This document shows, piece after piece, positions 3,554 through 30,521 of a stretch of DNA of 32,000 bases. Origin of the DNA: an uncultured Gammaproteobacteria bacterium. GTDB lineage: Bacteria > Patescibacteriota > Microgenomatia > Daviesbacterales > UBA10151. How positions within the stretch are numbered: the first letter of the stretch is position 1; each line of letters begins with the position of its first letter. Made by a program: the position numbers and the translations under genes. Under the pieces are notes generated by a model, which saw nothing but the letters and a program-made list of their open reading frames with translations, had not been told where the DNA came from and ran no database searches. The DNA lies in the NCBI GenBank assembly GCA_964360965.1, contig CAYHYM010000003.1, forward strand, positions 1 to 32,000. The letters run 5' to 3'.

Positions 3554-3589
3554 GCGCCCATTTTACCAAACTGGAAACAAAGCGTATGG

Positions 3590-3633
3590 ACACCCTTGGG
3601 GTGTATTCGTATTGACACCTGCGGATATTTGAG
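3590..3633 (+). repeat. left 44-nt repeat (ACACCC-ttg-GGGTGT hairpin followed by TTGACA)
   Basis: acacccttggggtgtattcgtattgacacctgcggatatttgag. TTGACA, then 17 nt, then TATGCT lies just upstream of the transposase ATG, so it is a possible promoter. Confidence 0.75.
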
Positions 3634-3648
3634 ATATGCTAGGCTCAA

Positions 3649-4293
3649 ATGCCTTCCAGAATTTTCCCCTTTGTAAATGGGCAGTATTACCACATCTATA
3701 ATAGGGGTGTAGAAAAAAGAACTATCTTTGAAAAAAGCTGGGACTACTCAAGACTTAAAAAGACAATGCAGTATTATCAGCTTCTCGGCCCTAAGCCAAG
3801 GCTATCTAAATTCCTATTAGGCTCAATTCTCAAGCCAGATACCAATAAGAAGATCGTGGACATTATTTGCTACTGTTTAATGCCAAATCATTTTCACTTT
3901 CTTATAAAACAGTTAAAAGAGGGTGGAATTACAGAATTTGTTAGTAAATTAAGTAACAGTTATACCAAATATTACAATGTAAAATATAAACGGGTTGGAC
4001 CCTTACTACAGGGAGAATTTAAAGCTGTATTAGTAGAATCTGATGAACAATTGCTACATGTTTCTCGCTATATTCATTTGAACCCGATTGCTTCTTTTTT
4101 GGTAAAAGACTTAAATCTCTATGAATGGTCTTCTTATAAAGAATATACTAATAACCATAAAGGTATTTGTAATACGGAAGAAATTATGGGCTTTTTTAAA
4201 GATAGCTCCTCTTATCAAAAATTTTGTTTGGACCAAGTTGAATATGCCCAAAAACTGGAACTAATTAAGCATCAATTATTGGAAGAAGAATAA
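3649..4293 (+). CDS. HUH-family Y1 transposase, IS200-like / REP-associated tyrosine transposase (RAYT)-like
   Basis: 214 aa. HUH motif in CYCLMPNHFHFLIK and catalytic-Tyr region SRYIHLNPI, the typical Y1_Tnp/RAYT signature. Confidence 0.75.
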   Translation: MPSRIFPFVNGQYYHIYNRGVEKRTIFEKSWDYSRLKKTMQYYQLLGPKPRLSKFLLGSILKPDTNKKIVDIICYCLMPNHFHFLIKQLKEGGITEFVSKLSNSYTKYYNVKYKRVGPLLQGEFKAVLVESDEQLLHVSRYIHLNPIASFLVKDLNLYEWSSYKEYTNNHKGICNTEEIMGFFKDSSSYQKFCLDQVEYAQKLELIKHQLLEEE

Positions 4294-4294
4294 T

Positions 4295-4338
4295 ACACCC
4301 TTGGGGTGTATTTGTATTGACACCTGCGGATTTTTGAG
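4295..4338 (+). repeat. right 44-nt repeat (same hairpin, same orientation)
   Basis: acacccttggggtgtatttgtattgacacctgcggatttttgag, starting 2 nt after the transposase stop. 42 of 44 positions are identical to the left copy. Confidence 0.75.
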
Positions 4339-4371
4339 AAAATTTGACCGGCACCCTTGAAGGGAAGATAA

Positions 4372-4935
4372 CTATTTAATCAAATTACTAAAGCAGAGCG
4401 GGCATAAAAACTTCCTATAGATATTTGATTTAGCCATAGTAGCACCTGGATGCATTACACACTTCGGATCTCTGCAGTGAGCACCCTGATCAAATATAGA
4501 CTTGGCATAGTCATCAAAATGATCCTGATTTTTAACTGCCCAATGACCTACTTCATGAACAGTTAAGTTCTTTATCCTACGTTCGTATTCTTTTTTGCTA
4601 ACTCTTAGAACAGAACTGTCTTCTCCTTTTAATCCGCGCAGTCTGGCCAATGAAATTATCACACTTTTTGTTTTAGGACTTGAAACCCCATAACAAAAAT
4701 CCTCTACTGATTTAGGATAAGCAGATAAGATTTGGTTGCCAGTTACATATACGGTATTAACAACTTTTGCTGGAAAATTAACCCGATAAATTCCAAACTC
4801 CTCATCGAACTCTAAAAAATCCTGATGCTCTTTTTTTCTTACAGATACTTTATATCCGAATATCTTTTTAATTATATCAGCGACTATTAAACCTTCTTTT
4901 CTAATATACGGGTCATAATCAACTGATAATTTCAC
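4372..4935 (-). CDS. archaemetzincin-like zinc metallopeptidase (M54-like)
   Basis: 187 aa. HEVGH, then ...AHC-RDPK-C-V-M-x16-CPLC, which matches the archaemetzincin signature HExxH...C-x4-C-x-M-x17-CxxC apart from a longer linker after HExxH. The start lies 18 nt downstream of nrdJ on the same strand. Confidence 0.6.
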   Translation of the reverse strand: MKLSVDYDPYIRKEGLIVADIIKKIFGYKVSVRKKEHQDFLEFDEEFGIYRVNFPAKVVNTVYVTGNQILSAYPKSVEDFCYGVSSPKTKSVIISLARLRGLKGEDSSVLRVSKKEYERRIKNLTVHEVGHWAVKNQDHFDDYAKSIFDQGAHCRDPKCVMHPGATMAKSNIYRKFLCPLCFSNLIK

Positions 4936-8070: not shown

Positions 8071-10962
8071 GTGAAATTGCTGCCCCTTTTAATTTTTCTA
8101 TTCACTTTTATTACGCTTCCCTCCCCAATCTATGCTGTCACCATTGCTGAGCAAACCCAAAACTTTGGAAATCAGCTAAATGTCTGGCAGGCAATTCAAG
8201 AGCTGGGCAGCTTGCTTGATGGCAAGGCCGGTTCCTTTACTTTCAGGGTACGTACCACTAAGACCAACCTTGAAATGTTTGATTATACTGCTCAAAATAC
8301 CAAGATTTATGATAAGGACACAAACACCAAAGTTGCCAACGGCTGCCACACAGGTTCTGCCTCTGATCCTTTGGGTGGCTTGACCTTTACCACAGCCGGG
8401 GTACCTGTTGGTTTTGAAGACGTGACAATTGATTTTTCATCCTGTAACTCTTACTCCTTCACTCAAGGACATAAATATTTAATTATTATAAGTAATGCCA
8501 ATATGGCACAATTTGGTGGAAGTTTAATCTATTTTGCAGCCGCTGCTTACGGGTCAAGCAGCACTGACCATTTTAATGGTGGGGGTTTAAGGTATGCTTT
8601 TGATAATAAATTTTGCAACCCAATCACTTACCAATGGAATTCTTCAATAAGTAATGCAAATGAAGACCAATGTAATATTTGGACCACACCCAAAGATGAC
8701 CTTTATTTTATTTTAGCCAACACCTCCCCTCCTCCCAAAACCCCGGTTATTTTTATACCCGGGATAGGGGGGTCTGAATTTAAAGCAGGGCAGGATATTA
8801 TCTGGGCAGATCAGGATGATGGACATGGAGGAAAGTTTTCTCATGCTTATACATCTGGGGAGAAAATTTGGGTCAATGAGGGTAAGGCGGCCGAACTGGG
8901 GGAGGATGATTATTTTGATGTATTAAGATTAAAATCTGATGGAGTAACTTCTGAGGCTTCTCTAAGTTTAACAGGAGATCTGACTTCTTTTGGTTATGGG
9001 GATATTGATTCATTTTTTACCGGATTGGGGTATGAGAAAGGTAAAAATTTCTTTGTTTTTCCCTATGATTGGAGAAAGGATGTGAGAGTTACCAAAGATA
9101 GTTTGGATGCCTTAATTGAGGAGGCAAAAACCAAATCAGGACAAACTAAGGTTAATCTAGTGGCCCATTCCATGGGAGGCTTGGTAGCCAGATATTATAT
9201 TGCTGATTCAGGGAGAGCTTCTAAGGTTAATAAGCTAATTTCTATGGGAGTTCCCCATTTGGGAGCAACAAAAGCTTTGAAAACCCTAATGTATGGAGAT
9301 GAAATAAAGAAGGATGTATTTGGTATATTTGCACTAGGAATCCCATCAAGTGAGGTCAAAGACGTATTCCAAAATCTCCCCAGCGCATTCCAGCTTTTAC
9401 CTTCCAAAAAATTTTATGATTTCTATGACAACTCTGCTCAGAAACCTTTCCCGTTTAGCGACGAAAGAGATATTGACAGTAACAAAGTTACTGGAGCACT
9501 AAACTTTATTCAAATCAAAGGATTGCTGGAAAATTTAATACACAATATGACAGTATTTGACTTTGGAGAACAACTTCATAATTTAGCTGATCCATTACTT
9601 AATCAATCTTCAACAGTCAAGTTGTATAACATAGCTGGTACCAGCCAACCTACTTTAGGACAAATCAGGGAAACGTGGTTAATACAGTGGCCTATTAATT
9701 TAATCTCTATAAGAGACGAGGTCTTTATTAACGGAGACAATACAGTGCCGCTCTATAGTGCCTCACTTAAAAGTGATTCTTTAGATTTTTCAGGCAGTGC
9801 AACTATTTATTATGTGGAACAAAAACACAGTGATCTGGTTTCAAAAGATGGCACAGCTATGCAAACAGTAAAGTCTATTTTAGAAGAATCTGATTTACCT
9901 GTTGAGGTTAAATCCGAAAAGATTGATTTGGAAGGACAGCATGTGTCTTTGGATGATGGGGAATTGGAATTGTATGATGATGAAGGAAAACATACTGGCA
10001 TAAAAGATGACGGAGAAATTGAAACCAATATTCCTGAAACTTTTTATTCAACATCAGGTAAAACTAAACATGCTTTTGTTAAAAAGAAAGCTAAAAAAGT
10101 GAAAGTGAGGGCTACTCGAAAAAAGAAAACCTCATCAGATCCCAAAACAACCAATCTAAAAATTAGAAGTTATAAACAGGATAAGGTTTCTAAAACCACA
10201 ATTTATAGAGATGTCTTAATTGCTGAAACAGCCAAAGTTGAATTTGATCTGGATCCAGCAATTGATACTTCTCCAACCCTTGCATTATTTCCTGATTCCA
10301 CCAAATCTGACAGCACAAATATTAATCTCACTAGTGAGGTATCAGGTGGTCCTGCCTTAGACCAAACATCACCTTCTACAAAGATAGAACTATCAGGAAG
10401 TAAAGATTCATTAGGCAAGTTTATATCCTCTGCCACAGTAACCTTAAGTTCCTCTGATTCTGAATCGGGAATTTTAAAAACAGAATATAGTTTGGATAAT
10501 GGTAAGACTGTTCAAACGTACAGTAATCCATTCACTGTCTCAACTCCTGGTAAAACTACTTTACAGGTAAAGTCTATTGATAAATTAGGTAATGAGGAAA
10601 TACCACAAGAAAAGGTCATAGAGATTGCTTCATCAACTTCTAGCTCATCTTCTTCCAGCTCATCTGGCAATAACTCATCAAGCACTGCACAATCCACCTC
10701 TGAGGAGTCCGTTCCGGTCACCTCCGAGGTGTTACGAAGTGACTCCTCGGAGGTGGATAGCACAAGCTCATCACAAGATATCCTGGGACTTAGCACCCAA
10801 AATCCAGTTTCATCTGCTCAATTAAAACCTCTAACTAACAACCAACCTAATCTACTAACAAGCAGTATGTTGATCTTAACAATGTTTATGGCCCAAAGCG
10901 GAATAATTCTTTTGTCATCCTTAAGATCAGTTCTTTCTTTTCTTAAACCAACCCCAAAATAG
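8071..10962 (+). CDS. secreted, C-terminally anchored LCAT/PGAP1-like alpha/beta-hydrolase (lipase/acyltransferase) with Ig-like and Ser-rich regions
   Basis: 963 aa with a GTG start. Signal peptide MKLLPLLIFLFTFITLPSPIYA. PVIFIPGIGGSEF oxyanion region, nucleophile elbow AHSMGG, and later NGDNTVP and KHSD (putative Asp and His). A poly-Ser tract and a terminal hydrophobic helix follow. Confidence 0.7.
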   Translation: MKLLPLLIFLFTFITLPSPIYAVTIAEQTQNFGNQLNVWQAIQELGSLLDGKAGSFTFRVRTTKTNLEMFDYTAQNTKIYDKDTNTKVANGCHTGSASDPLGGLTFTTAGVPVGFEDVTIDFSSCNSYSFTQGHKYLIIISNANMAQFGGSLIYFAAAAYGSSSTDHFNGGGLRYAFDNKFCNPITYQWNSSISNANEDQCNIWTTPKDDLYFILANTSPPPKTPVIFIPGIGGSEFKAGQDIIWADQDDGHGGKFSHAYTSGEKIWVNEGKAAELGEDDYFDVLRLKSDGVTSEASLSLTGDLTSFGYGDIDSFFTGLGYEKGKNFFVFPYDWRKDVRVTKDSLDALIEEAKTKSGQTKVNLVAHSMGGLVARYYIADSGRASKVNKLISMGVPHLGATKALKTLMYGDEIKKDVFGIFALGIPSSEVKDVFQNLPSAFQLLPSKKFYDFYDNSAQKPFPFSDERDIDSNKVTGALNFIQIKGLLENLIHNMTVFDFGEQLHNLADPLLNQSSTVKLYNIAGTSQPTLGQIRETWLIQWPINLISIRDEVFINGDNTVPLYSASLKSDSLDFSGSATIYYVEQKHSDLVSKDGTAMQTVKSILEESDLPVEVKSEKIDLEGQHVSLDDGELELYDDEGKHTGIKDDGEIETNIPETFYSTSGKTKHAFVKKKAKKVKVRATRKKKTSSDPKTTNLKIRSYKQDKVSKTTIYRDVLIAETAKVEFDLDPAIDTSPTLALFPDSTKSDSTNINLTSEVSGGPALDQTSPSTKIELSGSKDSLGKFISSATVTLSSSDSESGILKTEYSLDNGKTVQTYSNPFTVSTPGKTTLQVKSIDKLGNEEIPQEKVIEIASSTSSSSSSSSSGNNSSSTAQSTSEESVPVTSEVLRSDSSEVDSTSSSQDILGLSTQNPVSSAQLKPLTNNQPNLLTSSMLILTMFMAQSGIILLSSLRSVLSFLKPTPK

Positions 10963-13890: not shown

Positions 13891-13895
13891 ATTAT

Positions 13896-13920
13896 GTCAT
13901 TCTGAGCGCAGCGAAGAATC
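13896..13920 (+). repeat. GTCAT / CTGAGC...CGAAG hairpin-type repeat copy
   Basis: gtcattctgagcgcagcgaagaatc. It shares CTGAGC-N4-CGAAG with the copies at 18834, 24436 and 28136, and shares GTCAT...GCGCAG...ATC with the hairpin at 29311. It encodes the last codons and the stop (SSLRSE*) of the upstream ORF. Confidence 0.6.
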
Positions 13921-14535
13921 TAACTTTTCTATTAGTTCCCCCTTCTCCACTGACACCTGGTAAAAATTACAAAGCTTATTAGTTTTTTCTTTAGGTTTAT
14001 CTAGTTCAATAATGATACAATCCCCGGGTGGAACTTGTGGATGAGGTGAGAGTATATGGGAAGCAGGATCAGCTAATTTTTTCTGATGAAAATTACTGCC
14101 AGAAGTTTGATATACAAAAACCTGTAACTCCCCTGGTAAACCATTACATATCACACCACTTTCTAAACTAACCACTCCATTATTAGTAGGCGCAACCAAT
14201 GAACTTGCAGTCATTCTTCCACCTATCACTTTAAAAAATTCACCCAAACTAATATCTTTATACTCTATCACCGGTCCCTCAACATGAATCCTATTATCAT
14301 TATGCTCATGTAGAATTGGTGTGCCAATTTTGTTAGATAATCCCTTGGGGTCTATTAAGTCCACTTTGTTTCCGCAGTTCCAAATTCCAAAATCAGCATG
14401 CCAGTGAACAGGACCACCAGTAACAGAGGTTTGGTTTGTGGAGATGGTTGACCAAACAAGATAAGCTGTAATTCCCAAAACCAGCAAAACAATTGTAAGA
14501 AATAAAAAATATTTTAAAATTTCTCTTTTTTCCAT
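13897..14535 (-). CDS. hypothetical membrane-anchored exported protein with Cys/His motifs
   Basis: The ORF track gives 13897-14604. I prefer the internal ATG at 14535 (MEKREILKYFLFL...), because the longer form overlaps the divergent ATPase start. One N-terminal TM helix, HWHADFGIWNCG and LHEHNDNRIHVEG motifs, and 4 Cys. Confidence 0.55.
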   Translation of the reverse strand: MEKREILKYFLFLTIVLLVLGITAYLVWSTISTNQTSVTGGPVHWHADFGIWNCGNKVDLIDPKGLSNKIGTPILHEHNDNRIHVEGPVIEYKDISLGEFFKVIGGRMTASSLVAPTNNGVVSLESGVICNGLPGELQVFVYQTSGSNFHQKKLADPASHILSPHPQVPPGDCIIIELDKPKEKTNKLCNFYQVSVEKGELIEKLDSSLRSE

Positions 14536-14585
14536 CCATTTTCCACTATACCATCCAGTACTTATGTAATACAATTTAATTTGTA

Positions 14586-17189
14586 GTGGAAAAGGCATAT
14601 ACAAAAACCGCTGAGCAAGTTATTAAAGATCTAAAAACTGATCTTAAAGACGGGCTGACATCAGCCCAAGCCCAAAAAAGATTAGCACAATATGGCCCAA
14701 ATGTCTTAAAAGAAGAGATCGGTAAAAATCCTTTGCTGATTTTATTTTCCCAGTTCAGAAGCTTTTTGGTGATTATTTTAATAGTTGCCTCCATCATCTC
14801 ATATCTGTTGGGTCATAGCCTTGACGCCTTGATGATTTTGGCCATTGTCGCAATTAATGCTGTCTTAGGCTTTATTCAAGAATATCGGGCAGAGGAATCC
14901 ATCAAACATCTGAAAAAACTGGTCACTGCCAATGTCCAGGTGATCAGAGATGGCCGGTTAGTAGAGATTCCCCACTTTCAACTGGTACCAGGAGATTTGG
15001 TAATTGTAAGTGACGGCCAAAAAGTCCCGGCTGATTTAAGAGTAACACAATCCATCTATCTGCACCTTAATGAAGCACCACTGACCGGAGAATCAATTCC
15101 TGTCACCAAAGTAACAGACAGCTTACCCCCCAACACCAACATAGCTGATCAAAAAAATATGCTTTTTGCAGGCACCTCAGTCTCTTCTGGCAAGGGTATG
15201 GGGATAGTTGTATCAACAGCTATGAAAACAGAAATTGGCCAAATTGCCCATCTGGTATCACAAGAGGTGGAACCAGAAACCCCCCTCAAACAAAAGCTGG
15301 ATCGTTTGGGCAAACTTTTGGGCAGAATTGTTTTAATCGTCGCCTCCTTAATTGCCCTGGAACAAATAATATTGGGTGAACCAGTTATTGAAGCTCTCAT
15401 CTCATCAGTGGCCTTGGCAGTAGCAGCCATACCAGAAGGCTTGCCTGCCATTGTCACCATCTCTTTGGCTTTGGGCACCAAAAGGCTTCTTAAACAACGT
15501 GCCTTAATCAGAAATTTGCCTGCCTCAGAAACCTTAGGATCAACAGAGGTAATATGTGTAGACAAAACTGGCACCCTAACAGAAGGAGAAATGTCTGTGA
15601 GAGAGATTTACGGCGCAAATATTCAAAAAATTCTCACTGTGGGGATACTTTCAAGCAATGCCAGAAAAAATAAAGACAGAATTATTGGAGATGCCACTGA
15701 GGCAGCTTTAATACAAAAGGCCATAGATTCAGGACTGGATCAGGATCAATTGGATAAAAAATTTCCTCGAGTACAAGAAATACCCTTTTCTTCAGACAGA
15801 AAAATGATGACCACCATCTGCAAAGAGGATAATCAATACCGGGTGACCAGCAAAGGTGCAACCGAAGTCATCTTGGACAAATGTTCACATATTGAGGAGA
15901 ATGGCCAGGTTATACCATTAACTGAGGAGAAAAAAGAACAGATTTTAAAAGTTAATGACCAAATGGCCCAAGATGCCTTGAGGATTTTGGCTTTTGCCGA
16001 GAAGCGCATACACCTTGCAGGTGAAGAAAATGCAGTTACACCTGCGAGGTGGAAAGAAGAAGAGATAGAAAAAGATCTGATCTTTCTAGGCCTTCAGGGA
16101 ATGATGGATCCACCAAGGGAAGGTGTTAAAGAGGCTATTGAGGTTTGTCAAAGAAAAGCAGGAATTAAAGTAATAATGATCACCGGAGATCACCTGTTAA
16201 CTGCCCAATCCATTGCCAAAGAAATTGGTATCAAGGGGGAGAGCATCAGCGGTCAAGAGCTTGACAATCTTTCTGAAGAAGAATTTGTCAAAAAAGTTCA
16301 GGAAATTAACATCTATGCCAGGGTCAGCCCCACTCATAAAATTAGGATCATCAAGGCCCTAAAAGCCCGCGGTCATCAGGTGGCCATGACAGGTGATGGG
16401 GTCAATGATGCTCCGGCCTTAAAGGCTGCTGATACTGGGGTGGCCATGGGGGTTACGGGCACCGACGTGGCCAAAGATGCCTCAGATATAATTTTACTGG
16501 ATGATAATTTCACCACCATTGTGCAAGCCATAAAAGAAGGAAGGACAATTTTTGACAACATCAGAAAATTTGTTAATTACCTGTTATCTTCAAACATTAT
16601 GGAAATAATGGTGATATCTTTGGCTGTAATTTTGGGTGGGGGACATTTGCCGCTTTTACCTATTCATCTTTTATGGATCAATCTGGTCACTGATGGGCTG
16701 CCGGCCCTGGCTTTGGGAGTTGATCCGCCCAGAGCAGACATCATGAGTTTACCGCCCCAAAATTTTAGGCAGCAGATATTGGGTGGTAGATCTTTAGGGC
16801 CTTTAACTGCCGTCAGTGTACTTTTAACCATAGCTATCCTTGCTATTTTCTTTATCTATCAAAAAGATCCAATTTATGAACAAACCATGGTTTTTACATC
16901 CATTGTCTTTTATGAAATGTTAAGAATTATTGCCATAAGGTCTGAATATAAACTGCCGTTTTTCTCAAATAAATTCTTAATCCTTGCTATAGCTGGATCA
17001 TTAGCACTGCATCTTGTGATTCTTTATCTACCATTCTCTTTTGCAGGAGTAACATTGCAAGAATTATTTAAAGTTCAGCCGTTAAATCTTTTTGACTGGG
17101 TACTACTGCTTGGAATTGGCATCTTCCTTCTATTTATCATGAGAATCTTGGTCATTACACCTGTATTTAATTTTTTAAAAAAGCCTTGA
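14586..17189 (+). CDS. cation-transporting P-type ATPase, type II (Ca2+/PacL-like)
   Basis: 867 aa with a GTG start. N-terminal cation-ATPase domain (GLTSAQAQKRLAQYGPN), DKTGTLT, TGD, MTGDGVNDAPALK and 10-TM topology. Confidence 0.9.
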   Translation: MEKAYTKTAEQVIKDLKTDLKDGLTSAQAQKRLAQYGPNVLKEEIGKNPLLILFSQFRSFLVIILIVASIISYLLGHSLDALMILAIVAINAVLGFIQEYRAEESIKHLKKLVTANVQVIRDGRLVEIPHFQLVPGDLVIVSDGQKVPADLRVTQSIYLHLNEAPLTGESIPVTKVTDSLPPNTNIADQKNMLFAGTSVSSGKGMGIVVSTAMKTEIGQIAHLVSQEVEPETPLKQKLDRLGKLLGRIVLIVASLIALEQIILGEPVIEALISSVALAVAAIPEGLPAIVTISLALGTKRLLKQRALIRNLPASETLGSTEVICVDKTGTLTEGEMSVREIYGANIQKILTVGILSSNARKNKDRIIGDATEAALIQKAIDSGLDQDQLDKKFPRVQEIPFSSDRKMMTTICKEDNQYRVTSKGATEVILDKCSHIEENGQVIPLTEEKKEQILKVNDQMAQDALRILAFAEKRIHLAGEENAVTPARWKEEEIEKDLIFLGLQGMMDPPREGVKEAIEVCQRKAGIKVIMITGDHLLTAQSIAKEIGIKGESISGQELDNLSEEEFVKKVQEINIYARVSPTHKIRIIKALKARGHQVAMTGDGVNDAPALKAADTGVAMGVTGTDVAKDASDIILLDDNFTTIVQAIKEGRTIFDNIRKFVNYLLSSNIMEIMVISLAVILGGGHLPLLPIHLLWINLVTDGLPALALGVDPPRADIMSLPPQNFRQQILGGRSLGPLTAVSVLLTIAILAIFFIYQKDPIYEQTMVFTSIVFYEMLRIIAIRSEYKLPFFSNKFLILAIAGSLALHLVILYLPFSFAGVTLQELFKVQPLNLFDWVLLLGIGIFLLFIMRILVITPVFNFLKKP

Positions 17190-18140: not shown

Positions 18141-19185
18141 GGTGTGCCTCCGCAGCCGGGCTTTGTTTTTTCCGCTTCAATAAATAATTATATGCAGCCA
18201 AGGCAGCCCTTACCCCATCACCTGCAGAAATATTATTTTGTTTATAAGGATCATTGGTGACGTCCCCACAAGCAAAAACCCCGGGATGGGAGGTGGTGGC
18301 ATGTTGAAAATTCACCATGATTTGTCCATGGTCATCAATTTGTACCAAATCTTTAACCATCTCAGAGTTAGGAACTGAGCCTATTTCCACAAATATCCCG
18401 CCCACTTCCAAAGTCTTTTCTTCTGCACTTCCACTCCCGATGTGGGATTGAGCTGACACATCGGGAGTGTGTATTCGGTATTTGAGCCCGGTTACCAATG
18501 CTTCCCCCACCACTTCCACAGTTTGGGCATTAAGAATAATTTGTCTAAGTTTGGGGTTTTTCTTGATTTCCTCAATAGTTGCCGGATCAGCTCTTAAGAT
18601 CTCACCCCTCTCCATCAGGTAAATTTCTGATGCATAGGGAAAAAGGTCCTGTACTGCCTCGAGTCCGGCATTTCCTCCACCAACAACTGCCACCTTTTTA
18701 TCGCGAAAAAGGGGAGCATCGCATGTTGAGCAATATACCACACCCCTACCTTCAAACTTATCCTCCCCTGGAATGCCTAGTTTCCTACGTCTGGCACCTG
18801 AGGCCACAATGACGGTTTTCCCCTGATATACTTGTCCTGAGCCTGTCGAAGGATCTGTAGTCACCTCAAAATCACAGATCCTCCCAGCAGACACCTCGGA
18901 TGGTGTGGACTCAGTAGACCTGCATGCAACAGATTTTACCTTCACCACCTTTTCTGTTTTTATATCAACAATATCTGGATAAGCTCTAACATGAGCTTCC
19001 AGTTTTTTAGCTAAATTGAGTCCAGAAATATGTACCTCTCCTATCCAGTTTTGAATATCATCTGAGACAATTGACTGCCCGCCAAAAGATTCTGTAATAA
19101 GGAGAGTTTTCATCTGCTTTCTTGCCGCATAAACAGCAGCAGCACAAGCTGCAGGTCCTCCACCAATGATAATTACGTCATACAT
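18130..19185 (-). CDS. trxB: FAD-dependent pyridine nucleotide-disulfide oxidoreductase, thioredoxin reductase / AhpF C-terminal-like
   Basis: 351 aa. GGGPAACAAAVYAAR FAD motif, FGGQ...IQNWIG, redox CSTCDAPLF (AhpF-like CxxCDGPLF), VVGGGNAGLEA NAD motif and GVFACGDV. It carries two in-frame repeat insertions. Confidence 0.8.
   Translation of the reverse strand: MYDVIIIGGGPAACAAAVYAARKQMKTLLITESFGGQSIVSDDIQNWIGEVHISGLNLAKKLEAHVRAYPDIVDIKTEKVVKVKSVACRSTESTPSEVSAGRICDFEVTTDPSTGSGQVYQGKTVIVASGARRRKLGIPGEDKFEGRGVVYCSTCDAPLFRDKKVAVVGGGNAGLEAVQDLFPYASEIYLMERGEILRADPATIEEIKKNPKLRQIILNAQTVEVVGEALVTGLKYRIHTPDVSAQSHIGSGSAEEKTLEVGGIFVEIGSVPNSEMVKDLVQIDDHGQIMVNFQHATTSHPGVFACGDVTNDPYKQNNISAGDGVRAALAAYNYLLKRKKQSPAAEAHHGA
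18432..18469 (+). repeat. palindromic element, 13-bp perfect stem and 12-nt loop, intragenic (copy 1)
   Basis: cactcccgatgtg-ggattgagctga-cacatcgggagtg. The arms are identical to the copy at 20519-20556. Confidence 0.85.
18834..18854 (+). repeat. CTGAGC-N4-CGAAG element, intragenic
   Basis: gtc-CTGAGC-ctgt-CGAAG-gat. It is read in frame as PSTGSGQ. Confidence 0.65.
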
Positions 19186-19187
19186 AC

Positions 19188-20147
19188 TTATACCTTAACA
19201 GGAGTAAGTGGAGGTTGTCCAGATAAAACCGCAATTATATTTTTGGCTGCCAATTCTCCCATGGCTGAACGGGCTTCTATTGTTGCAGAAGCAATATGAG
19301 GAGTTAGAATCACATTTTCTAAATCCACCATACCAGCAGCCCATTTAGGTTCTGTTTCACCCACATCTAAAGCTGATCCGGCAATGACTTTATTTTTCAA
19401 GGCTTCGACAAGCTCAGCCTCATCAACCACAGGACCACGGGAAGTATTGACCAGATAGGCCGTGGATTTCATCATCTTCAGATGCTCGGCGTTAATTAAA
19501 TGTCTTGTAGAATCAAGTAGGGGGACGTGAATTGAAACCACATCTGATGTGGAAAGTAGTTCTTCAGGTGTTGCTTTAAAGACTGCTCCCACCTTAGTTT
19601 CAAAATCCGGATTTTGTTTAACATCGTAATAGATCACATTCATACCAAAACTTTTCCCAATCTCAGCCACCCTTGAACCAATCCTGCCGAGTCCTAAAAC
19701 CCCCAAGGTTTTATCTTTAAGTTCCATCCCCAACATGACTTCCGGACCAAACTGCGCAGACTCTGTAAGAGCCAATTTATGGGCTTCAACAACTCTTCTT
19801 GAGATTGCCATTATCAGTGCAAATGTATGTTCAGCAACAGCCTCTGTTAACACATCCGGGGTGTTGGTGACCACAATACTTCGCGACAAAAGGGCGGGGA
19901 GGTCTAAATTATCTGTACCTACAGCGTAATTGGCAACTATTTTTAAATTAGCCCCAGCAGCGTTAATAAACTCCTGATCCACCTTATCAGTCAACATGCT
20001 CAACACCCCATCTGCACCCTGTATAAAATTCAAAAGTTCCTGTCTTTCCAAAGGCCGATCATGTGGTGAAACCACCACTTCATACCCAGCATCCTGCAAC
20101 ATCTTTATCCCACTGCCGGGAATTTTTCTGGTAACTACAACTTTCAT
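19188..20147 (-). CDS. D-isomer-specific 2-hydroxyacid dehydrogenase (glyoxylate/hydroxypyruvate reductase-like)
   Basis: 319 aa. NAD fold GLGRIGSRVAE, catalytic region TPHIASAT, and a strong SD (GGAGGTGG) 6 nt upstream of the ATG. Confidence 0.8.
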   Translation of the reverse strand: MKVVVTRKIPGSGIKMLQDAGYEVVVSPHDRPLERQELLNFIQGADGVLSMLTDKVDQEFINAAGANLKIVANYAVGTDNLDLPALLSRSIVVTNTPDVLTEAVAEHTFALIMAISRRVVEAHKLALTESAQFGPEVMLGMELKDKTLGVLGLGRIGSRVAEIGKSFGMNVIYYDVKQNPDFETKVGAVFKATPEELLSTSDVVSIHVPLLDSTRHLINAEHLKMMKSTAYLVNTSRGPVVDEAELVEALKNKVIAGSALDVGETEPKWAAGMVDLENVILTPHIASATIEARSAMGELAAKNIIAVLSGQPPLTPVKV

Positions 20148-20171: not shown

Positions 20172-21017
20172 CTAATCCATCATAACAACTTCTGTTAAAA
20201 CTTTAAATCTTTCTGGTAAGGTTTTTGTTAAAAACTGTTGTTTTTCTTCCCCTTGCAAACTGCAAACCTCCTGCCACAGCGCCCTTCCTGCTAAAAAGCC
20301 TTTGGCCCCTGCTTTTATTGCAACTTTCAAATTTTCTTTAAAAACCTCAAAACTATCTCCTCCTGTAAGTAAAATCCATGGAGTATCACCTACCATATTG
20401 GTAATTTCCACGCATACATCCAAATCACCCGGATATTCCAACTTCCACACATCTGGAACTATCCTAACCTCCTTAAAAATTTTCACTGACTCGATCACCA
20501 ACCCTGCTTTAGTGGTCCCACTCCCGATGTGAGATTGAGTATGCACATCGGGAGTGTACGTGACAATTTCTAAAAAAAATGGGAAATCATGAATCTTACA
20601 ATCCTCTAAAACTTTCCTGGCAGTTTCCAGCTGTTTTTTTGCACTTTCTAAGTTTGGATTAAAATAAATCAAAAGTTTGGCCCCAGAAGCCCCCAGCTCT
20701 TTTAACTGCCCAACTATGTATTCCAACTCCGTAATTCTTTCTCCAGCCTGGTTAACGTATCCGCTTTTTTCTAAAGGTAATAAAAATGGTTTTGTTTGGC
20801 AAGCTTCTTTACATGCCTCTATGCCATAGTGTTCATCAATCAACAGTCCTGAAACTTGACCTGCTAAAGCATTGATAATTTCTGATTTCAGGGAAACAAC
20901 AGTCTCATCAGAAACACTATCAGCATCCTGTGGATTTATTAATTTCTTAAATGATCCCCTATGGTCCAAAGCCAACATCAAAAATTTGCCATCAGATGTA
21001 AACTTACTTAAATCCAT
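20172..21017 (-). CDS. class I aldolase of the LacD/YihT (tagatose-bisphosphate aldolase) family
   Basis: 281 aa. N-terminal FLMLALDHRGS motif and VWKLEYPG (putative Schiff-base Lys region). It carries the in-frame palindromic element. Confidence 0.65.
   Translation of the reverse strand: MDLSKFTSDGKFLMLALDHRGSFKKLINPQDADSVSDETVVSLKSEIINALAGQVSGLLIDEHYGIEACKEACQTKPFLLPLEKSGYVNQAGERITELEYIVGQLKELGASGAKLLIYFNPNLESAKKQLETARKVLEDCKIHDFPFFLEIVTYTPDVHTQSHIGSGTTKAGLVIESVKIFKEVRIVPDVWKLEYPGDLDVCVEITNMVGDTPWILLTGGDSFEVFKENLKVAIKAGAKGFLAGRALWQEVCSLQGEEKQQFLTKTLPERFKVLTEVVMMD
20519..20556 (+). repeat. palindromic element, 13-bp perfect stem and 12-nt loop, intragenic (copy 2)
   Basis: cactcccgatgtg-agattgagtatg-cacatcgggagtg. 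Confidence 0.85.
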
Positions 21018-23293: not shown

Positions 23294-25300
23294 CTATATT
23301 TTCACTCTTTTTAATAATAACGAATTAGTAACAACAGATATAGAACTTGTGGCCATAGCAACTGATGCAAAAATCGGATTCAATAGTAAATGAAAGAATG
23401 AATAGAGAATTCCCATAGCAACAGGTATCAGTATAATATTATATCCAAAAGCCCAAAACAGATTCAACTTAATAGTTCTCATGGTTTTTTGGGATAACTC
23501 AACTGCATGAGCTACGGATTTTAAGTCTTTATTGATTAGTGTAATATCAGCAGCTTCTATTGCTACATCCGTACCAGTTCCCATGGCAATGCCTATATCT
23601 GCAGCAGCCAGAGCTGGAGCATCGTTAATCCCATCACCAACCATAGCAACTTTTTTACCCTCTGCCTGAATTTTTTTCACCTCTGCTTCTTTCTGATCTG
23701 GTAAGACTTCTGCCAAAACTCTTTTAATACCCACTTGATCTGCAATAGCGTCAGCAGTCCTCTTATTATCTCCTGTAATCATCACAACTTCTATGCCCAT
23801 TTTTTGCAATGACTGCACACCTTCTCTGGCAGTGTCTTTTAAAGTATCGGCCACAGCAATTAAACCCGCTAATTTTCTATTTGCAGCCAGCATCATTACT
23901 GTCTTACCATCATTTTCAAATTTCTCAATATCTGTGAGATTTTTTTCATAAATCACGTTCTCCCTGTCCATAAGCTTGCGATTTCCCAGGAAAACTTTCT
24001 GGTTGTTAACTACCCCTTCTATCCCAAATCCAGGGATTGCTTTAAAATATTTAACCTTCGGAATAGTCTCACCCTCTATGCCAAGATTTCTTCCATACTC
24101 TAAAATTGCTTCTGCAAGAGAATGTTCTGAAGACTTTTCCAGAGCAACTGCCCGAGAAAGTATTAGCATATCACTGTTATACATTCTATTACCCGTTGTC
24201 TTAATATCTGTAACCACTGGTTTCCCTTTGGTGAGTGTTCCTGTTTTATCAAAAATCACGGTATTTATTTTATGGGCTGTTTCCAAGCTTTCTGCATCTT
24301 TTATTAAAATCCCATGCTCTGCCCCAATCCCTGTTCCCACCATAATAGCTGTGGGAGTAGCCAGACCCATGGCACAAGGGCAGGCAATAATTAAAACTGC
24401 TATGGCATTTAACATGGCAAATAAGAGGGGGACCTGCCCTGAGCTTGTCGAAGGGCCAAACACATACCAACCGACAAATGTGACAATTGCCAGCATAATC
24501 ACAATGGGCACAAAATAAGAGGAAATTAAATCTGCAATCCTTTGGATTGGAGCTTTAGAGCCTTGTGCTTCCTGGACTAACTTAATAATTTGAGCGAGCA
24601 TGGTATCAGAACCTACTTTTGTGGCTTTATAAGTAAAAGTGCCTGATTTATTAATTGTTGCCCCGACAACTATATCTCCTTTAGCTTTATCAACCGGCAT
24701 ACTCTCACCAGTTATCATTGACTCATCTATAGAGGATTCACCTTCAACTATCACTCCATCTACTGGAATTTTCTCACCAGGTCTGACTCTGATTACATTA
24801 CCAACCACAACCTGATCAATAGGTATATCTTTTTCCTGACCATCAACTAGAACCCTGGCAGTTTTAGCTTGTAATCCAATTAATTTTTTAATAGCTTCAG
24901 AAGTTCCAGCTTTGGCTTTGGCCTCAAAATAACGGCCAAGCAAAATCAAACCGATAATAATTGTGGAAACATCAAAATACGGTTCCGGTTTGATGCCAAT
25001 ATTTTCCATCACTTGAGGAAAAATAGTCACAAAGGCGGAATAGGAAAAAGCCACACTAGTACCAATGGCAACCAGTGTGTCCATATTGGCAGTACGATGA
25101 CGCAGTGCAGGCAGTGTTGCTTGATAAAATTCCCATCCTGCCCAAAATTGAACTGGGGTGGCCAAAAGCAGTTGTACCCAGAAGTTTTGTAAAATAGTTG
25201 GGGAAGTTACCATTAATCCTGGAAAAGAACCCCATAAAATCAGTCCACCTAAAACCAAACTTATTACCACTTTAATTTGTAAATCCTTCTCTCTGTTCAT
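23294..25300 (-). CDS. copA: copper-translocating P1B-type ATPase (no N-terminal HMA domain)
   Basis: 668 aa. CPC motif ([13 protein letters not shown]), DKTGTLT, MITGDN and [11 protein letters not shown]. Confidence 0.9.
24436..24456 (+). repeat. CTGAGC-N4-CGAAG element, intragenic
   Basis: gcc-CTGAGC-ttgt-CGAAG-ggc. It is read in frame as PSTSSGQ, just upstream of the CPC helix. Confidence 0.65.
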
Positions 25301-27755: not shown

Positions 27756-28778
27756 TTATTTATCCTTCATGCGCAAGACCGCAGTCACAGCTTTAATAAT
27801 AGCCTCTTTGCCCAAGCCAAATTTTTCCATTAGTTCACTGGGTTCTCCACTTTCTCCAAACCTATCTTCCACCCCTACTCTTTTAATTGGTACTGGATAA
27901 TTTTCAGACAAAACTTCTGCTACTGCCCCACCTAAACCACCAATTATTTGGTGTTCTTCAACTGTTACTATTGCCCCACAATCTTTTGCAGCTTGTAGGA
28001 TCGTCTTTTTATCCAAAGGTTTTAAGGTGTGGGAATTTATTACTCGAACACTTATTTTGTGCGATTCTAGCTCTTTTGCAGCCAATAGAGCCTGATAAAC
28101 TAAAGGCCCACAGGCGATTAGACAAACATCTAATCGTCCTGAGCGAACATCGTGAGTCGAGGGACCACCATCCCAGAGTACTTCAGCCCTACCTATCTCA
28201 AATGGCGAATCCTCTGTGGTGAATACAGGTGTTTTTTCTCTAGTAAATCTAAGATAAGTAGGCTTACCATTAAATGCTGCAGCAAGGGTGGCTTTCTTGG
28301 CTTCAATGCTATCACAAGGGGCAATCACCATTATATTAGGCACAGCCCGCATGATGGCCATGTCTTCCAGTTGTTGATGAGTAGCCCCATCAGGACCAAC
28401 AGAAATCCCGGCATGGGCTCCGGCAATCTTAACCGGCACATCGTTTATAGCAATGGTGGTTCTGATCTGTTCCCAATTTCTGCCTGGTGAGAAAGCAGCA
28501 TATGATGAGATAAAAGGAATTTTGCCATAATTGGCCATTCCTGCTGCCACTGTAGCCATCATTTGCTCTGCCACCCCAACTTCAATAAAACGATCAGGGA
28601 ATTTTTCTTTAAAAAGAATAGACCTGGTAGACTCTGTTAAATCCGCACATAAAACCACTACCCTTTCATCCCTCTCTCCAGCCAAGACTAATCCCTCCCC
28701 ATACCCTTCCCTGGTCGGTATTTGTTCAATATCCTGATCAAATATTTTTGGATTAAGATGAGCGTTTTTGTTTACCAT
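27756..28778 (-). CDS. tkt: transketolase, C-terminal half (pyrimidine-binding and C-terminal domains)
   Basis: 340 aa. FIEVGVAEQMM motif, DGATHQ, and the size typical of split transketolase subunit B. It contains an in-frame repeat insertion. Confidence 0.9.
   Translation of the reverse strand: MVNKNAHLNPKIFDQDIEQIPTREGYGEGLVLAGERDERVVVLCADLTESTRSILFKEKFPDRFIEVGVAEQMMATVAAGMANYGKIPFISSYAAFSPGRNWEQIRTTIAINDVPVKIAGAHAGISVGPDGATHQQLEDMAIMRAVPNIMVIAPCDSIEAKKATLAAAFNGKPTYLRFTREKTPVFTTEDSPFEIGRAEVLWDGGPSTHDVRSGRLDVCLIACGPLVYQALLAAKELESHKISVRVINSHTLKPLDKKTILQAAKDCGAIVTVEEHQIIGGLGGAVAEVLSENYPVPIKRVGVEDRFGESGEPSELMEKFGLGKEAIIKAVTAVLRMKDK
28136..28165 (+). repeat. CTGAGC-N13-CGAGG element (long-loop variant), intragenic
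   Basis: gtc-CTGAGC-gaacatcgtgagt-CGAGG-gac. It is read in frame as PSTHDVRSGR. Confidence 0.6.
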
Positions 28779-28781
28779 ATT

Positions 28782-29288
28782 TTATCCCCACATATCTTTT
28801 AAAGCTGGAAATCTCTCAATATTTAATAAATCCATTAAAGCCAAGTTCCACCCAGTGTGTAATATCTCATGATCATTTAACCCATAAAGCATGGTAACTG
28901 CTGAAACTGGTTCTTGACTCCAAGGAACTATAATAAGTTTGTTTGCAATATCATCATTAGAAAGTTCCTCTATCAGTTTTTTATCCAATTCCTGAAGTCT
29001 TTGTAATGCTTCTTCTCTGCTTAATGATTTAAGGTTTTTATCATCACCAGAAACAAATTCTAATTTGCCGGTCTCCAATGCAATTACATAATCTCTCTCA
29101 GCTCCAATTTGATGACCCAAACTTTCCCTTATGGAGTCAGCTTTTCTGTCTGGATTATCAACCATTCTAAAATCTAGTTTATCTTCCGGAACTCTTTTAT
29201 AGAATTCAATATTAATATTTCTATTGGTCAGAAACTGTGTAAGAAAACTTTTTACTTTAGAATTAGTAATTTTTTTAATTTCATCCAT
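28782..29288 (-). CDS. DinB-superfamily (DinB_2-like) four-helix-bundle protein
   Basis: 168 aa. His residues spaced as in DinB (LGHQIGAERDY ... NDHEILHTGW). The stop lies 3 nt before the tkt C-half start. Confidence 0.5.
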   Translation of the reverse strand: MDEIKKITNSKVKSFLTQFLTNRNINIEFYKRVPEDKLDFRMVDNPDRKADSIRESLGHQIGAERDYVIALETGKLEFVSGDDKNLKSLSREEALQRLQELDKKLIEELSNDDIANKLIIVPWSQEPVSAVTMLYGLNDHEILHTGWNLALMDLLNIERFPALKDMWG

Positions 29289-29310
29289 GTTTATATTCCT
29301 TACTTAACTT

Positions 29311-29335
29311 GTCATCCCCGCGCAGGCGGGGATCC
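29311..29335 (+). repeat. GTCAT hairpin repeat (left)
   Basis: gtcat-ccccgc-gcag-gcgggg-atcc, with 8-bp stem atccccgc/gcggggat. Confidence 0.7.
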
Positions 29336-29337
29336 AT

Positions 29338-29622
29338 TTAAATGACCTGACTATATAAATCAGACCATTCTGGATTAAACTTATTAATTAGCTTCATCTT
29401 CCAGTATCTTTTCCATTTCTTCATTTGTTTCTCTCTCAATATAGCATCATTAATATTCTGATGCTGTTCATAATACACCAGTTCATGTACTCCATATTTT
29501 TCAGTAAATCCCTTCACTAAATTATTTTTATGTTCCCAAACCCTTCTTACCAAATTATCTGTTACTCCTATGTAAAAAGTCCCGTTTTTTCCGCTAGCCA
29601 GTATATAAACATAATATTCCAT
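29338..29622 (-). CDS. GIY-YIG (URI-domain) nuclease family protein, UPF0213-like
   Basis: 94 aa. YVYILASGKNGTFYIGVTDNLVRRVWEHK is the classic GIY-X10-YIG...R...E pattern. Confidence 0.85.
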   Translation of the reverse strand: MEYYVYILASGKNGTFYIGVTDNLVRRVWEHKNNLVKGFTEKYGVHELVYYEQHQNINDAILREKQMKKWKRYWKMKLINKFNPEWSDLYSQVI

Positions 29623-29631
29623 TTGTTAAGT

Positions 29632-29656
29632 GGATTCCTGCTTTCGCAGGAATGAC
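29632..29656 (-). repeat. GTCAT hairpin repeat (right, inverted)
   Basis: The plus strand reads ggattcctgctttcgcaggaatgac. Its reverse complement gtcat-tcctgc-gaaa-gcagga-atcc differs from the left copy by paired C:G to T:A stem changes. Confidence 0.7.
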
Positions 29657-29663
29657 AAAATCA

Positions 29664-30521
29664 CTATTCATGTTCGCCTTTGATCTTGCCACCTAGTGTC
29701 CTTAGTTGATGTAGAGCTTTTTTGGCTTCCTCAGGATTTGGTGGCTTGCTATGCCAAGCTGGATTCCACTCCATGAAATCAACTCCTTTTCCTGGAATTG
29801 TGTGAGCAATAATCACAGAAGGTTTACCATATTCAGATTTGGCATGACCCACAGCATCCGTGAACTCCACAATGTTATGACCATCAACATGCAAAACATG
29901 CCAACCAAAAGCCTCATACTTCTCAACCAAAGGCTCAAGCGGCATCACATCTTCTGTATGGCCGTCTATTTGAATATTGTTTCTATCAACTACAACTATT
30001 AAGTTTGACAGTTTGTATTTGCCGGCAAAAAGTACTGCCTCCCAGTGATTACCAGCATCATGCTCCCCATCAGAACAGATACAATAAACCCAAAATCTTT
30101 TTTTATCCATCCTGGCAGCATATGCATAACCTGAAGCTTGGGCAAGGCCAGAGCCTAATGGTCCAGATGTTGTCTCAACTCCAGGCAATTTGGTTCTTTC
30201 AGGATGACCCTGTAACCTAGTTCCAAGTTTTCTGAATGTTTTAAGTTCTTCAATGGGAAAATACCCAGAATGAGCCATGGCCACATACCTGACCGGACAA
30301 ATATGGCCATTGGATAAAAATAATCTATCTCTCTCTTCCCATTCTGGATTTTTTGGATCATGGTTTAAGATATTAAAATAAAAGGCAGTGAAAATATCTG
30401 CCATCCCCAAAGGTCCTGCAGAGTGCCCAGACCCTGCCTCAAGGAGCATCTTGATAATATCCTGGCGAATTTCATTAGCTTTTTCCTCTAACTGGTGGAT
30501 GTCATGACTTAAGATGGACAT
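29664..30521 (-). CDS. tkt: transketolase, N-terminal half (thiamine-diphosphate-binding domain)
   Basis: 285 aa. GSGHSAGPLGMADI, LSNGH and CSDGEHDAGNHWEA (TPP-binding GDG-like motif), typical of split transketolase subunit A. Confidence 0.9.
   Translation of the reverse strand: MSILSHDIHQLEEKANEIRQDIIKMLLEAGSGHSAGPLGMADIFTAFYFNILNHDPKNPEWEERDRLFLSNGHICPVRYVAMAHSGYFPIEELKTFRKLGTRLQGHPERTKLPGVETTSGPLGSGLAQASGYAYAARMDKKRFWVYCICSDGEHDAGNHWEAVLFAGKYKLSNLIVVVDRNNIQIDGHTEDVMPLEPLVEKYEAFGWHVLHVDGHNIVEFTDAVGHAKSEYGKPSVIIAHTIPGKGVDFMEWNPAWHSKPPNPEEAKKALHQLRTLGGKIKGEHE

Follow-up and report, generated by a model that had tools for sequence, protein, structure and literature searches.

What is a 30-base segment with the look of a DNA hairpin repeat doing, in frame, inside the gene for a core enzyme? 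The question arises for tktB, which encodes the C-terminal subunit of a split transketolase (27756-28778, - strand; 340 aa, open reading frame [ORF] intact; Pfam Transket_pyr and Transketolase_C) on a 32,000-nt stretch of contig CAYHYM010000003.1 (assembly GCA_964360965.1), hereafter called the window. Named homologs of the tktB product come from Woesebacteria, Daviesbacteria, and Microgenomates, which places the source organism within the candidate phyla radiation (CPR), and sister contigs of the window come from Hainich groundwater metagenomes. An earlier note on this DNA had read positions 28136-28165 of the + strand as a long-loop variant of a CTGAGC...CGARG element. We find that the segment is an in-frame insertion in a surface loop of the transketolase subunit, and that it is a copy (30-33 bp) of a dispersed, directional hairpin DNA repeat.

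Read directly, 28136-28165 is GTC CTGAGC GAACATCGTGAGT CGAGG GAC, with the inner segment also given as gaacatcgtgagt. Translation confirms that it adds ten codons, PSTHDVRSGR (28134-28163, - strand; residues 206-215), between VLWDGG and LDVCLIACGP. The proposal that these residues extend the turn before the DV-x-IIA strand was likewise borne out. In an alignment with the C chain of a solved split transketolase (PDB 6YAJ), an 11-residue gap falls exactly opposite GPSTHDVRSGR, and among 120 homologs the site is empty in 21 of the 24 closest, which share 77-87% identity. The closest relative sequenced at the site (L083, 87% identical) reads TGG GAA GGT GAT GAT GTA at the DNA level, with no extra codons. 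An independent assembly from the same site (L330) carries the identical 30-mer, with a single mismatch over a 4339-nt overlap, so the focal copy is not an assembly artefact. The AlphaFold2 monomer model of the tktB product (mean pLDDT 83) puts the insert in loop 204-217, between the strands at 199-203 and 218-222, with pLDDT below 50 at residues 207-212.

Related segments occur elsewhere in the window. The pattern CTGAGC-N(1-30)-CGARG has five matches there against 0.17 expected, a number that none of 100 shuffles attained. We also built a covariance model, R1, from 81 copies on unrelated metagenome and viral contigs, leaving out all window and transketolase-gene copies, and searched the window with filters off. 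The focal site, matched at full length over 28132-28169 (+ strand; model positions 1-38), scored higher than any other place in the window (40.8 bits, E=4.6e-9), and the likeness to other copies noticed earlier thereby survives a statistical motif scan. R1 finds three copies at E<=2e-4 and one marginal copy at E=0.08 in the 32 kb of genome examined; in other CPR loci there are only 6 short copies in 1.25 Mb. Two of the window copies are short forms on the + strand that are read in frame: CTGAGC CTGT CGAAG at 18830-18858, which encodes PSTGSG in a thioredoxin-reductase/AhpF-like gene (27.2 bits, E=2e-5), and CTGAGC TTGT CGAAG at 24432-24460, which encodes PSTSSG in a Cu-ATPase gene (23.4 bits, E=2e-4). 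Both are insertions, with 6-residue gaps in the alignments with PDB 1FL2 and PDB 3J08, respectively. The marginal copy, a short form with the full GTCAT flank (GTCATTCTGAGC GCAG CGAAGAATC; 13895-13923, + strand; 13.7 bits), encodes the final six codons (SSLRSE) and the TGA stop of ORF 13897-14604, whose C-terminus the insertion appears to have remodelled.

The fifth pattern match (19403-19417, - strand), which reads AELVEA in a 2-hydroxyacid dehydrogenase, was rejected as an insertion. Its R1 E value is 1.4, and its alignment with PDB 5AOV is free of gaps, which makes it native sequence with a likeness to the element. It is nonetheless the exact 15-mer CTGAGCTTGTCGAAG of the Cu-ATPase copy; chance codon choice and conversion by an element copy are both possible. 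Four of the five pattern matches lie on the + strand. Over positions 1-32000 the GC skew of that strand is negative nearly throughout and most long ORFs are on the - strand, and within the window strand and frame effects are inseparable.

Beyond the window the repeat is found in many settings. A scan of viral contigs with TCCTGAGC-N(4-13)-CGAAGGA gave at least 127 matches in at least 120 stretches, and a scan of metagenomes with CCTGAGCGA-N7-GAGTCGARGG gave at least 127 copies in at least 120 loci, on contigs of 34-74% GC. The earlier note had foreseen a census of loop-length variants, and these are plentiful: among the viral-contig matches listed, a spacer of 4 is strongly over-represented (54 of 127) and 13-nt spacers of the form GAGCGCAGCGAGT recur, and tktB genes hold short, long, and nested forms. 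The family consensus is (t)GTC(AT)CC-TGAGC-GA-[GCGNAGC]-GAGT-CGAA-GG-AT(C). Copies usually start with (T/C)GTCAT-CC and end with GG-AT(C), and TGTCATC and CGTCATC are the commonest 5' flanks. The inner 13 nt of the focal copy, GAACATCGTGAGT, recur in a long-form element at 4030-4055 of an unrelated contig of 59% GC (L312). No Rfam family matched the window or ten element-bearing loci, and we found no publication on the CTGAGC-class repeat, on its peptide read-outs, or on in-frame palindromes in CPR/Patescibacteria.

The description of the focal copy as a long-loop variant holds in part. It is an in-frame member of the family, and what looked like a long loop is not one: the 13 nt that separate CTGAGC from CGAGG make up a second tier of the hairpin, which defines a discrete and very widespread subfamily. 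Positions 1-2 and 6-7 of the N7 segment covary among the metagenome matches listed, as GC..GC, CC..GG, AC..GT, GT..AC, and AT..AT. In 133 distinct copies, the two apical pairs are Watson-Crick in 127 and 125, and the first free flank pair varies among T-A, C-G, T.G, and G-C; such pairing values were attained in none of 2000 permutations, and shifted controls were flat. The 81-copy alignment behaves in the same way, with apical pair counts of GC 55, CG 11, and AU 9 and flank pair counts of UA 37, CG 28, UG 9, and GC 3. There, 97.7% of cells are paired, compared with 33-52% for slid partners; no shuffle out of 500 reached that level, and two-sided changes are seen in 5 of 8 pairs.

The predicted lower tier runs from the self-paired flank through C1-G24 and T2-A23 to the tandem mismatches G3.A22 and A4.G21, then G5-C20, with T19 bulged, and C6-G18. 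A second tandem, G7.A17 and A8.G16, opens the predicted upper tier, which is completed by a 2-bp apical stem and a triloop. Fitted to this model, the focal copy has its core at 28139-28162, a GTCC/GGAC stem at 28136-28139 and 28162-28165, an AC/GT apical stem (pairs A-T and C-G), and the triloop ATC, which is minor but recurrent (6 of 133 copies). Of the 127 metagenome matches listed, 76 have GCGNAGC as their apical heptamer. Since GCGNAGC is an extraordinarily stable mini-hairpin motif of DNA (PMC13037366), single-stranded DNA (ssDNA) is indicated as the relevant form of the repeat. The published mini-hairpin d(GCGNAGC) is a structural unit, not a genetic element, and the focal copy carries the variant ACATCGT.

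How often has this repeat entered the transketolase loop? At least 17 of the 120 homologs carry a short, long, or nested copy there, and element-type peptides are confined to that one loop. Written on the element strand, short copies read CGCC CTGAGC TTAT CGAAG GG in L204 (protein P0012) and CGCC CTGAGC TTGC CGAAG GA in L205 (P0019), and long copies read CGTC CTGAGC GAGCACTGCGAGT CGAAG GAC in L081 and CGTC CTGAGC GAGTATCGCGAGT CGAAG GAA in L082. In the nested cases, a second CTGAGC...CGAA(G/T) copy lies within the first, yielding PSTHSTGSGQAGSGR in L206 (1067-2101) and PSARASTELSRTSSGR in L207 (1520-2563). Carriers are scattered singly among non-carriers, with Fitch parsimony giving 17 changes for 17 carriers, and at least two insertion positions are used, one after W/Y-x and one after W-x-G-G. 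The flanks of the window copy show nucleotide identities of 0.79-0.90 to the empty-site relative L083, 0.81-0.90 to the empty-site clade, and 0.56-0.77 to other carriers. Taken together, the scattered carriers, the separate junctions, and the empty-site-like flanks favour repeated independent insertion over a single ancestral event or the import of a tktB segment. The repeat is thus a recurring source of protein loop insertions in many related lineages.

This bears on a proviso of the earlier note, in which presence in unrelated transketolases was named as a finding that would speak against its reading. The insertion is not unique to this protein: most of the closest homologs have an empty site, and many more distant Microgenomates transketolases have short, long, or nested copies at the same loop. 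Such presence agrees with the letter of that proviso, yet what it actually reflects is recurrent insertion, not an ancestral loop. The peptides themselves follow two patterns. Where a copy in a CPR locus is coding, an antisense element strand gives PSxxSG and a sense one PExxEG. The phase is the same in the two cases, is the sole one open in both orientations, and yields small polar residues.

A gene for a small nuclease of the Ssn family lies 1.2 kb from the focal copy. Ssn proteins, 94 aa long, are GIY-YIG nucleases with a single domain (Chenal et al. 2025, PMC11893778) that act on ssDNA and not on RNA, binding a hairpin and cutting just upstream of it on one strand only; NTS repeats and Ssn-related motifs (SRM) flank ssn genes (PMC11893778). 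Between tktA, the gene for the N-terminal transketolase subunit (29664-30521), and the DinB-family and tktB genes, the window encodes such a 94-aa protein (29338-29622, - strand), with GIY-YIG (E=1.9e-13) as its sole Pfam domain. It aligns without gaps over all 94 residues, at 51% identity, with a 94-aa ORF of N. gonorrhoeae that is itself flanked by NTS repeats (GTCATTCCCGCG...GCGGGAATC). The tblastn E value is 2e-25, the published limit for Ssn membership being E<1e-10 to Neisseria SsnA (PMC11893778). An NCBIfam scan returned only a sub-threshold group I intron endonuclease match.

Hairpins border this gene on both sides. At its 3' end, TGTCATCCCCGCGCAGGCGGGGATCCAT (29310-29337, + strand; ssDNA fold of -9.7 kcal/mol, z=-3.75) was the sole match in a regex scan of the window with the published SRM pattern, HGTCWYN(0-2)YYVSBRHN(0-5)WNVSBRGN(0-2)RNCYNB. 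Just upstream of the gene, the NTS-like hairpin TGTCATTCCTGCGAAAGCAGGAATCCAC (29630-29657, - strand) misses that strict pattern; of its 28 positions, 4 are unlike the NTS instance CGTCATTCCCGCGAAAGCGGGAATCCAG, and two of these form a compensatory C-G to T-A stem change. A complete SRM-ssn-SRM unit (29310-29657) sits between the two transketolase subunit genes, beside the DinB-family gene (28782-29288). Close relatives, L083 and L205 among them, have tktA and tktB side by side.

The link between the CTGAGC class and Ssn is shown by gene adjacency, because the published SRM pattern misses the class. Among the 120 metagenome loci listed, which were chosen solely for the long-form element, there are 7 Ssn-like ORFs. 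Six of these 7 have a CTGAGC-class element no more than 45 nt from the gene, and two (L315 and L288) are flanked on both sides, L288 by long and short forms together. This position directly beside ssn-type genes marks the class as a variant of NTS/SRM repeats. L312 also has an Ssn-like ORF (2069-2416), 1.6 kb from its element and flanked by yet another hairpin type. Elements or ssn units stand beside tRNA genes in L306 (416-514), L215 (about 8650-8860), and L225; the end of the L306 element is 2 nt from the tRNA, which hints at tRNA-proximal integration.

Overall, we consider it probable that a copy of an Ssn-linked hairpin repeat inserted in tktB and is tolerated as a loop passenger, the outcome of recurrent insertion and a filter. 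The copy entered tktB in this Microgenomates lineage only after it had parted from the 87%-identical relatives. Its survival would be owed to insertion in a disordered turn between two beta strands, in a phase that is stop-free both ways and would give a peptide rich in Pro, Ser, Thr, Gly, and Arg; we infer that this peptide is a neutral passenger with no catalytic role. The + strand, when single-stranded in replication, repair, or DNA uptake, would fold, and the folded strand would be bound or cut just upstream by a putative cognate Ssn. Spread of copies may then be tied to single-strand cleavage followed by host repair or copying, the likeliest route we can offer, if still a tentative one. 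We know of no strand-transfer or transposition chemistry for Ssn. Frequent insertion together with a strong filter of protein tolerance best accounts for the recurrence at one loop, and a local target preference may contribute. In a gene-dense genome, we infer, frequent insertions meet a strong selective filter.

Put in general terms, the CTGAGC...CGAAG hairpins could be a distinct, unrecognised class of Ssn-associated ssDNA repeat, built on the GCGNAGC mini-hairpin, that acts in gene-dense CPR genomes as an in-frame insertional mutagen and repeatedly, independently, and sometimes nestedly lengthens the same surface loops of core enzymes; we advance this broader proposal as possible, short of probable. 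The class itself is large and so far undescribed, within the recently described Ssn/SRM kind of system, and its intragenic, recurrent, and nested behaviour is unusual.

Several findings weigh against this account. The ssn gene of the window is flanked by a different class, the perfect-hairpin SRMs, and neither the focal copy nor the canonical GTCATCCTGAGCGCAGCGAAGGATC was matched in a regex scan with the published SRM pattern. No Ssn homolog was found in the 120 listed viral-contig loci that bear short copies, and no Ssn/GIY-YIG homolog was found near tktB in 80 other CPR loci. The focal copy keeps the CGTC of the 5' flank without the AT that completes GTCAT, its core is an imperfect palindrome, and its apical heptamer departs from the canonical GCGNAGC. 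In nearest-neighbour ssDNA folding, neither the focal copy (z=0.18) nor the short copies do better than shuffles; we used covariation instead of energy folding because the energy model gives no credit to tandem G.A pairs or mini-hairpins. Finally, confinement of the peptides to a single loop exceeds what simple random insertion with a filter predicts.

Other histories of the segment can be set against the same observations. The long form might have arisen in place, if a short copy (CTGAGC GAGT CGAAG) in the tktB loop was lengthened by an in-frame tandem duplication of 9 bp (AGCGAGNNN twice). A direct repeat of 9 nt, AGCGAG-NNN-AGCGAG, is indeed present in the long form, the same type of junction (WDGG-PST..SGR) is seen with short copies in P0027, P0031, and P0036, and a short copy with the loop GAGT exists in L158. 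Yet the long form is discrete and very abundant across genomes and contexts that are unrelated, its apical stem shows compensatory changes, and the 13 nt GAACATCGTGAGT reappear in the 59% GC contig L312; no short copy stands at the focal junction in the 24 closest homologs, where the two element carriers, P0012 and P0019, use the other junction. We therefore regard lengthening in place as unlikely. Import of a tktB segment by homologous recombination from a carrier Microgenomates lineage, for instance by DNA uptake, would suit the patchy distribution across the tree and the junction residues GG-PST(H)...SGR-L that the window shares with P0101 and P0031. It is quite unlikely given that the 60-150 nt on either side of the insertion are closest to the empty-site L083 and show no raised identity to L206, L081, or L082, so that a recombination-tract test around the insertion was negative. 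If the segment were an ordinary loop extension of this lineage that took shape at the protein level, for example as a flexible linker or modification site, the DNA likeness would be incidental. A peptide of this composition in a turn of variable length might be read in that way, as might the unrelated insertions at the same turn in other CPR transketolases (e.g., SLSQITNHKSQITK), but the strength of the R1 match, the presence of the same DNA in other genes, in other frames, and in non-coding DNA of unrelated organisms, and covariation at the nucleotide level leave this explanation barely credible.

Two further alternatives concern the agent, not the history. Mobilisation by a Y1 transposase (IS200/IS605 or RAYT-like), as for REP/REPIN, has a candidate in the window, a Y1_Tnp gene at 3649-4293 flanked by hairpin-containing direct repeats, and REP-RAYT is a known precedent for the multiplication of hairpin repeats. 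The hairpins there, ACACCCTTGGGGTGT, show no relation to the CTGAGC class, however, and are confined to the two flanks of the gene; CTGAGC-class elements elsewhere flank Ssn genes rather than Y1 genes, and the 5' GTAG signature of REPs is absent beside CTGAGC copies, all of which makes a Y1 route very unlikely. The Y1 (IS200-like) ORF itself encodes 214 aa within a unit at 3588-4340 bounded by direct repeats of about 47 nt. Its hairpins, at 3590 and 4295, are the only two copies in the window, and this confinement identifies the unit as IS200/IS605- or RAYT-like. The element might instead act as RNA, as a structured motif in an mRNA or antisense transcript. Tandem G.A pairs and GNA triloops are stable in RNA too, and covariation alone cannot separate DNA from RNA. 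An RNA role is still highly improbable when weighed against the lack of an Rfam match in the window and the ten element-bearing loci, the occurrence of copies in both gene orientations and in non-coding DNA, the action of the associated Ssn family on ssDNA and not RNA (PMC11893778), and the standing of GCGNAGC as a hallmark DNA mini-hairpin (PMC13037366).

Insertion of an Ssn-linked repeat, as we favour it, has partial parallels in other systems. Rickettsia palindromic elements, reportedly described by Ogata et al. in 2000 and 2002, are selfish palindromic repeats that lie in frame in conserved protein genes, where they occupy the protein surface and spare the fold; they are about 100-150 bp long and not known outside Rickettsia. 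The likeness ends with in-frame insertion at such sites. The present element is 15-33 bp, occurs in many phyla, is Ssn-linked, and has a Microgenomates bacterium as its host, and it falls outside the definition of the Rickettsia elements, which PMC1779305 and PMC10969869 mention. Closer in size are the very small dispersed repeats of heterocystous cyanobacteria, reportedly described by Elhai et al. in 2008 as mobile-looking repeats of about 20-30 nt with nested insertions. Size, mobile look, and nesting in earlier copies are shared, whereas the sequence family and the host group differ, and the comparison is one of description, not of sequence. To our knowledge, no Ssn link has been described for those repeats. 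They are cited in PMC3116915.

REP/REPIN-RAYT systems (PMC3116915; Nunvar 2010, PMC2817692) also consist of short imperfect hairpin repeats that multiply in genomes, and they border a gene, present as a single copy, whose enzyme product recognises ssDNA hairpins. Here, in contrast, the enzyme is a GIY-YIG nuclease and not a Y1 transposase, the 5' GTAG is missing, and copies are intragenic where REPs are extragenic, so the class is not a REP family. The nearest relatives are the NTS/SRM repeats (PMC11893778). They are short directional hairpin repeats with a 5' (C/T)GTC(AT) and a 3' GGAT(C) and exist in many dispersed copies, as appears to hold for the CTGAGC class too, and like that class they directly adjoin 94-aa single-domain GIY-YIG genes, at times on both sides; the Neisseria NTS is CGTCATTCCCGCGMAVGCGGGAATCYRG. 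The core of the CTGAGC class differs in having tandem G.A mismatches and, in the long form, the GCGNAGC mini-hairpin in place of a perfect GC-rich palindrome. Its copies are intragenic and in frame here, compared with 2% intragenic reported for NTS (PMC11893778), and its cleavage by Ssn is only predicted.

Not until 2025 were Ssn nucleases and their hairpin repeats described, and this locus adds a large class of repeats missed by the published search pattern. It also provides, at a single protein loop, a natural set of sites, some filled, some empty, and some nested, that is suited to inferring how repeats insert. In compact CPR genomes, such repeats land in essential genes as loop insertions, which accounts for recurring low-complexity insertions (PSTSSGR/Q, PExxEG) in CPR protein alignments that might otherwise be mistaken for adaptive features or errors. 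If the insertional-mutagen reading is true, Ssn-linked repeats would be a systematic source of protein length variation, implying real movement. More complex variants are seen in the related Microgenomates contig L081 at 4543-4569, 15616-15642, and 18677-18714, for example CTGAGCGAGCG(C/T)CTGCAGTGAGCGAAGTCGAAC; the copies at 4543 and 18677-18714 are near 23S_rRNA_IVP (four-helix-bundle) genes.

The window holds other repeats of different make. The earlier note had proposed that the focal copy is related to, or recombines with, an element with a 13-bp stem at 18432-18469, on the strength of a shared GATGT...GCTCA junction, and this did not hold up. GCTCA is not conserved, the second copy of that element (20519-20556) having ACTCA, and GATGT is specific to the focal copy, with AGTGC in L081 and GATAC in L082. 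We rejected the kinship also because ACATCGT fits the apical stem-loop of the CTGAGC family itself, because the same 13 nt occur in the unrelated contig L312, and because the junction pattern, which was chosen post hoc, has 2 matches against 0.25 expected. The two 13-bp-stem copies form a second in-frame repeat family, with a perfect stem (CACTCCCGATGTG / CACATCGGGAGTG) and a 12-nt loop, that encodes (H/Y)TPDVxxQSHIGSG in the thioredoxin-reductase/AhpF-like gene and in a DeoC-family aldolase gene. The copy at 18432-18469 is an insertion, with a 9-residue gap in PDB 1FL2. A third extra segment of the thioredoxin-reductase/AhpF-like protein (ACRSTESTPSEVSAGRIC, 18871-18924) is partly unaligned to PDB 1FL2, and its DNA contains a small hairpin, ACACC-TCGGAT-GGTGT, reminiscent of those that flank the Y1 gene. 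Finally, a 67-bp near-palindrome at 10692-10758, with 33-nt arms that are 79% complementary, reads QSTSEESVPVTSEVLRSDSSEVD in frame in a Ser-rich stretch of a 963-aa lipase-like ORF.

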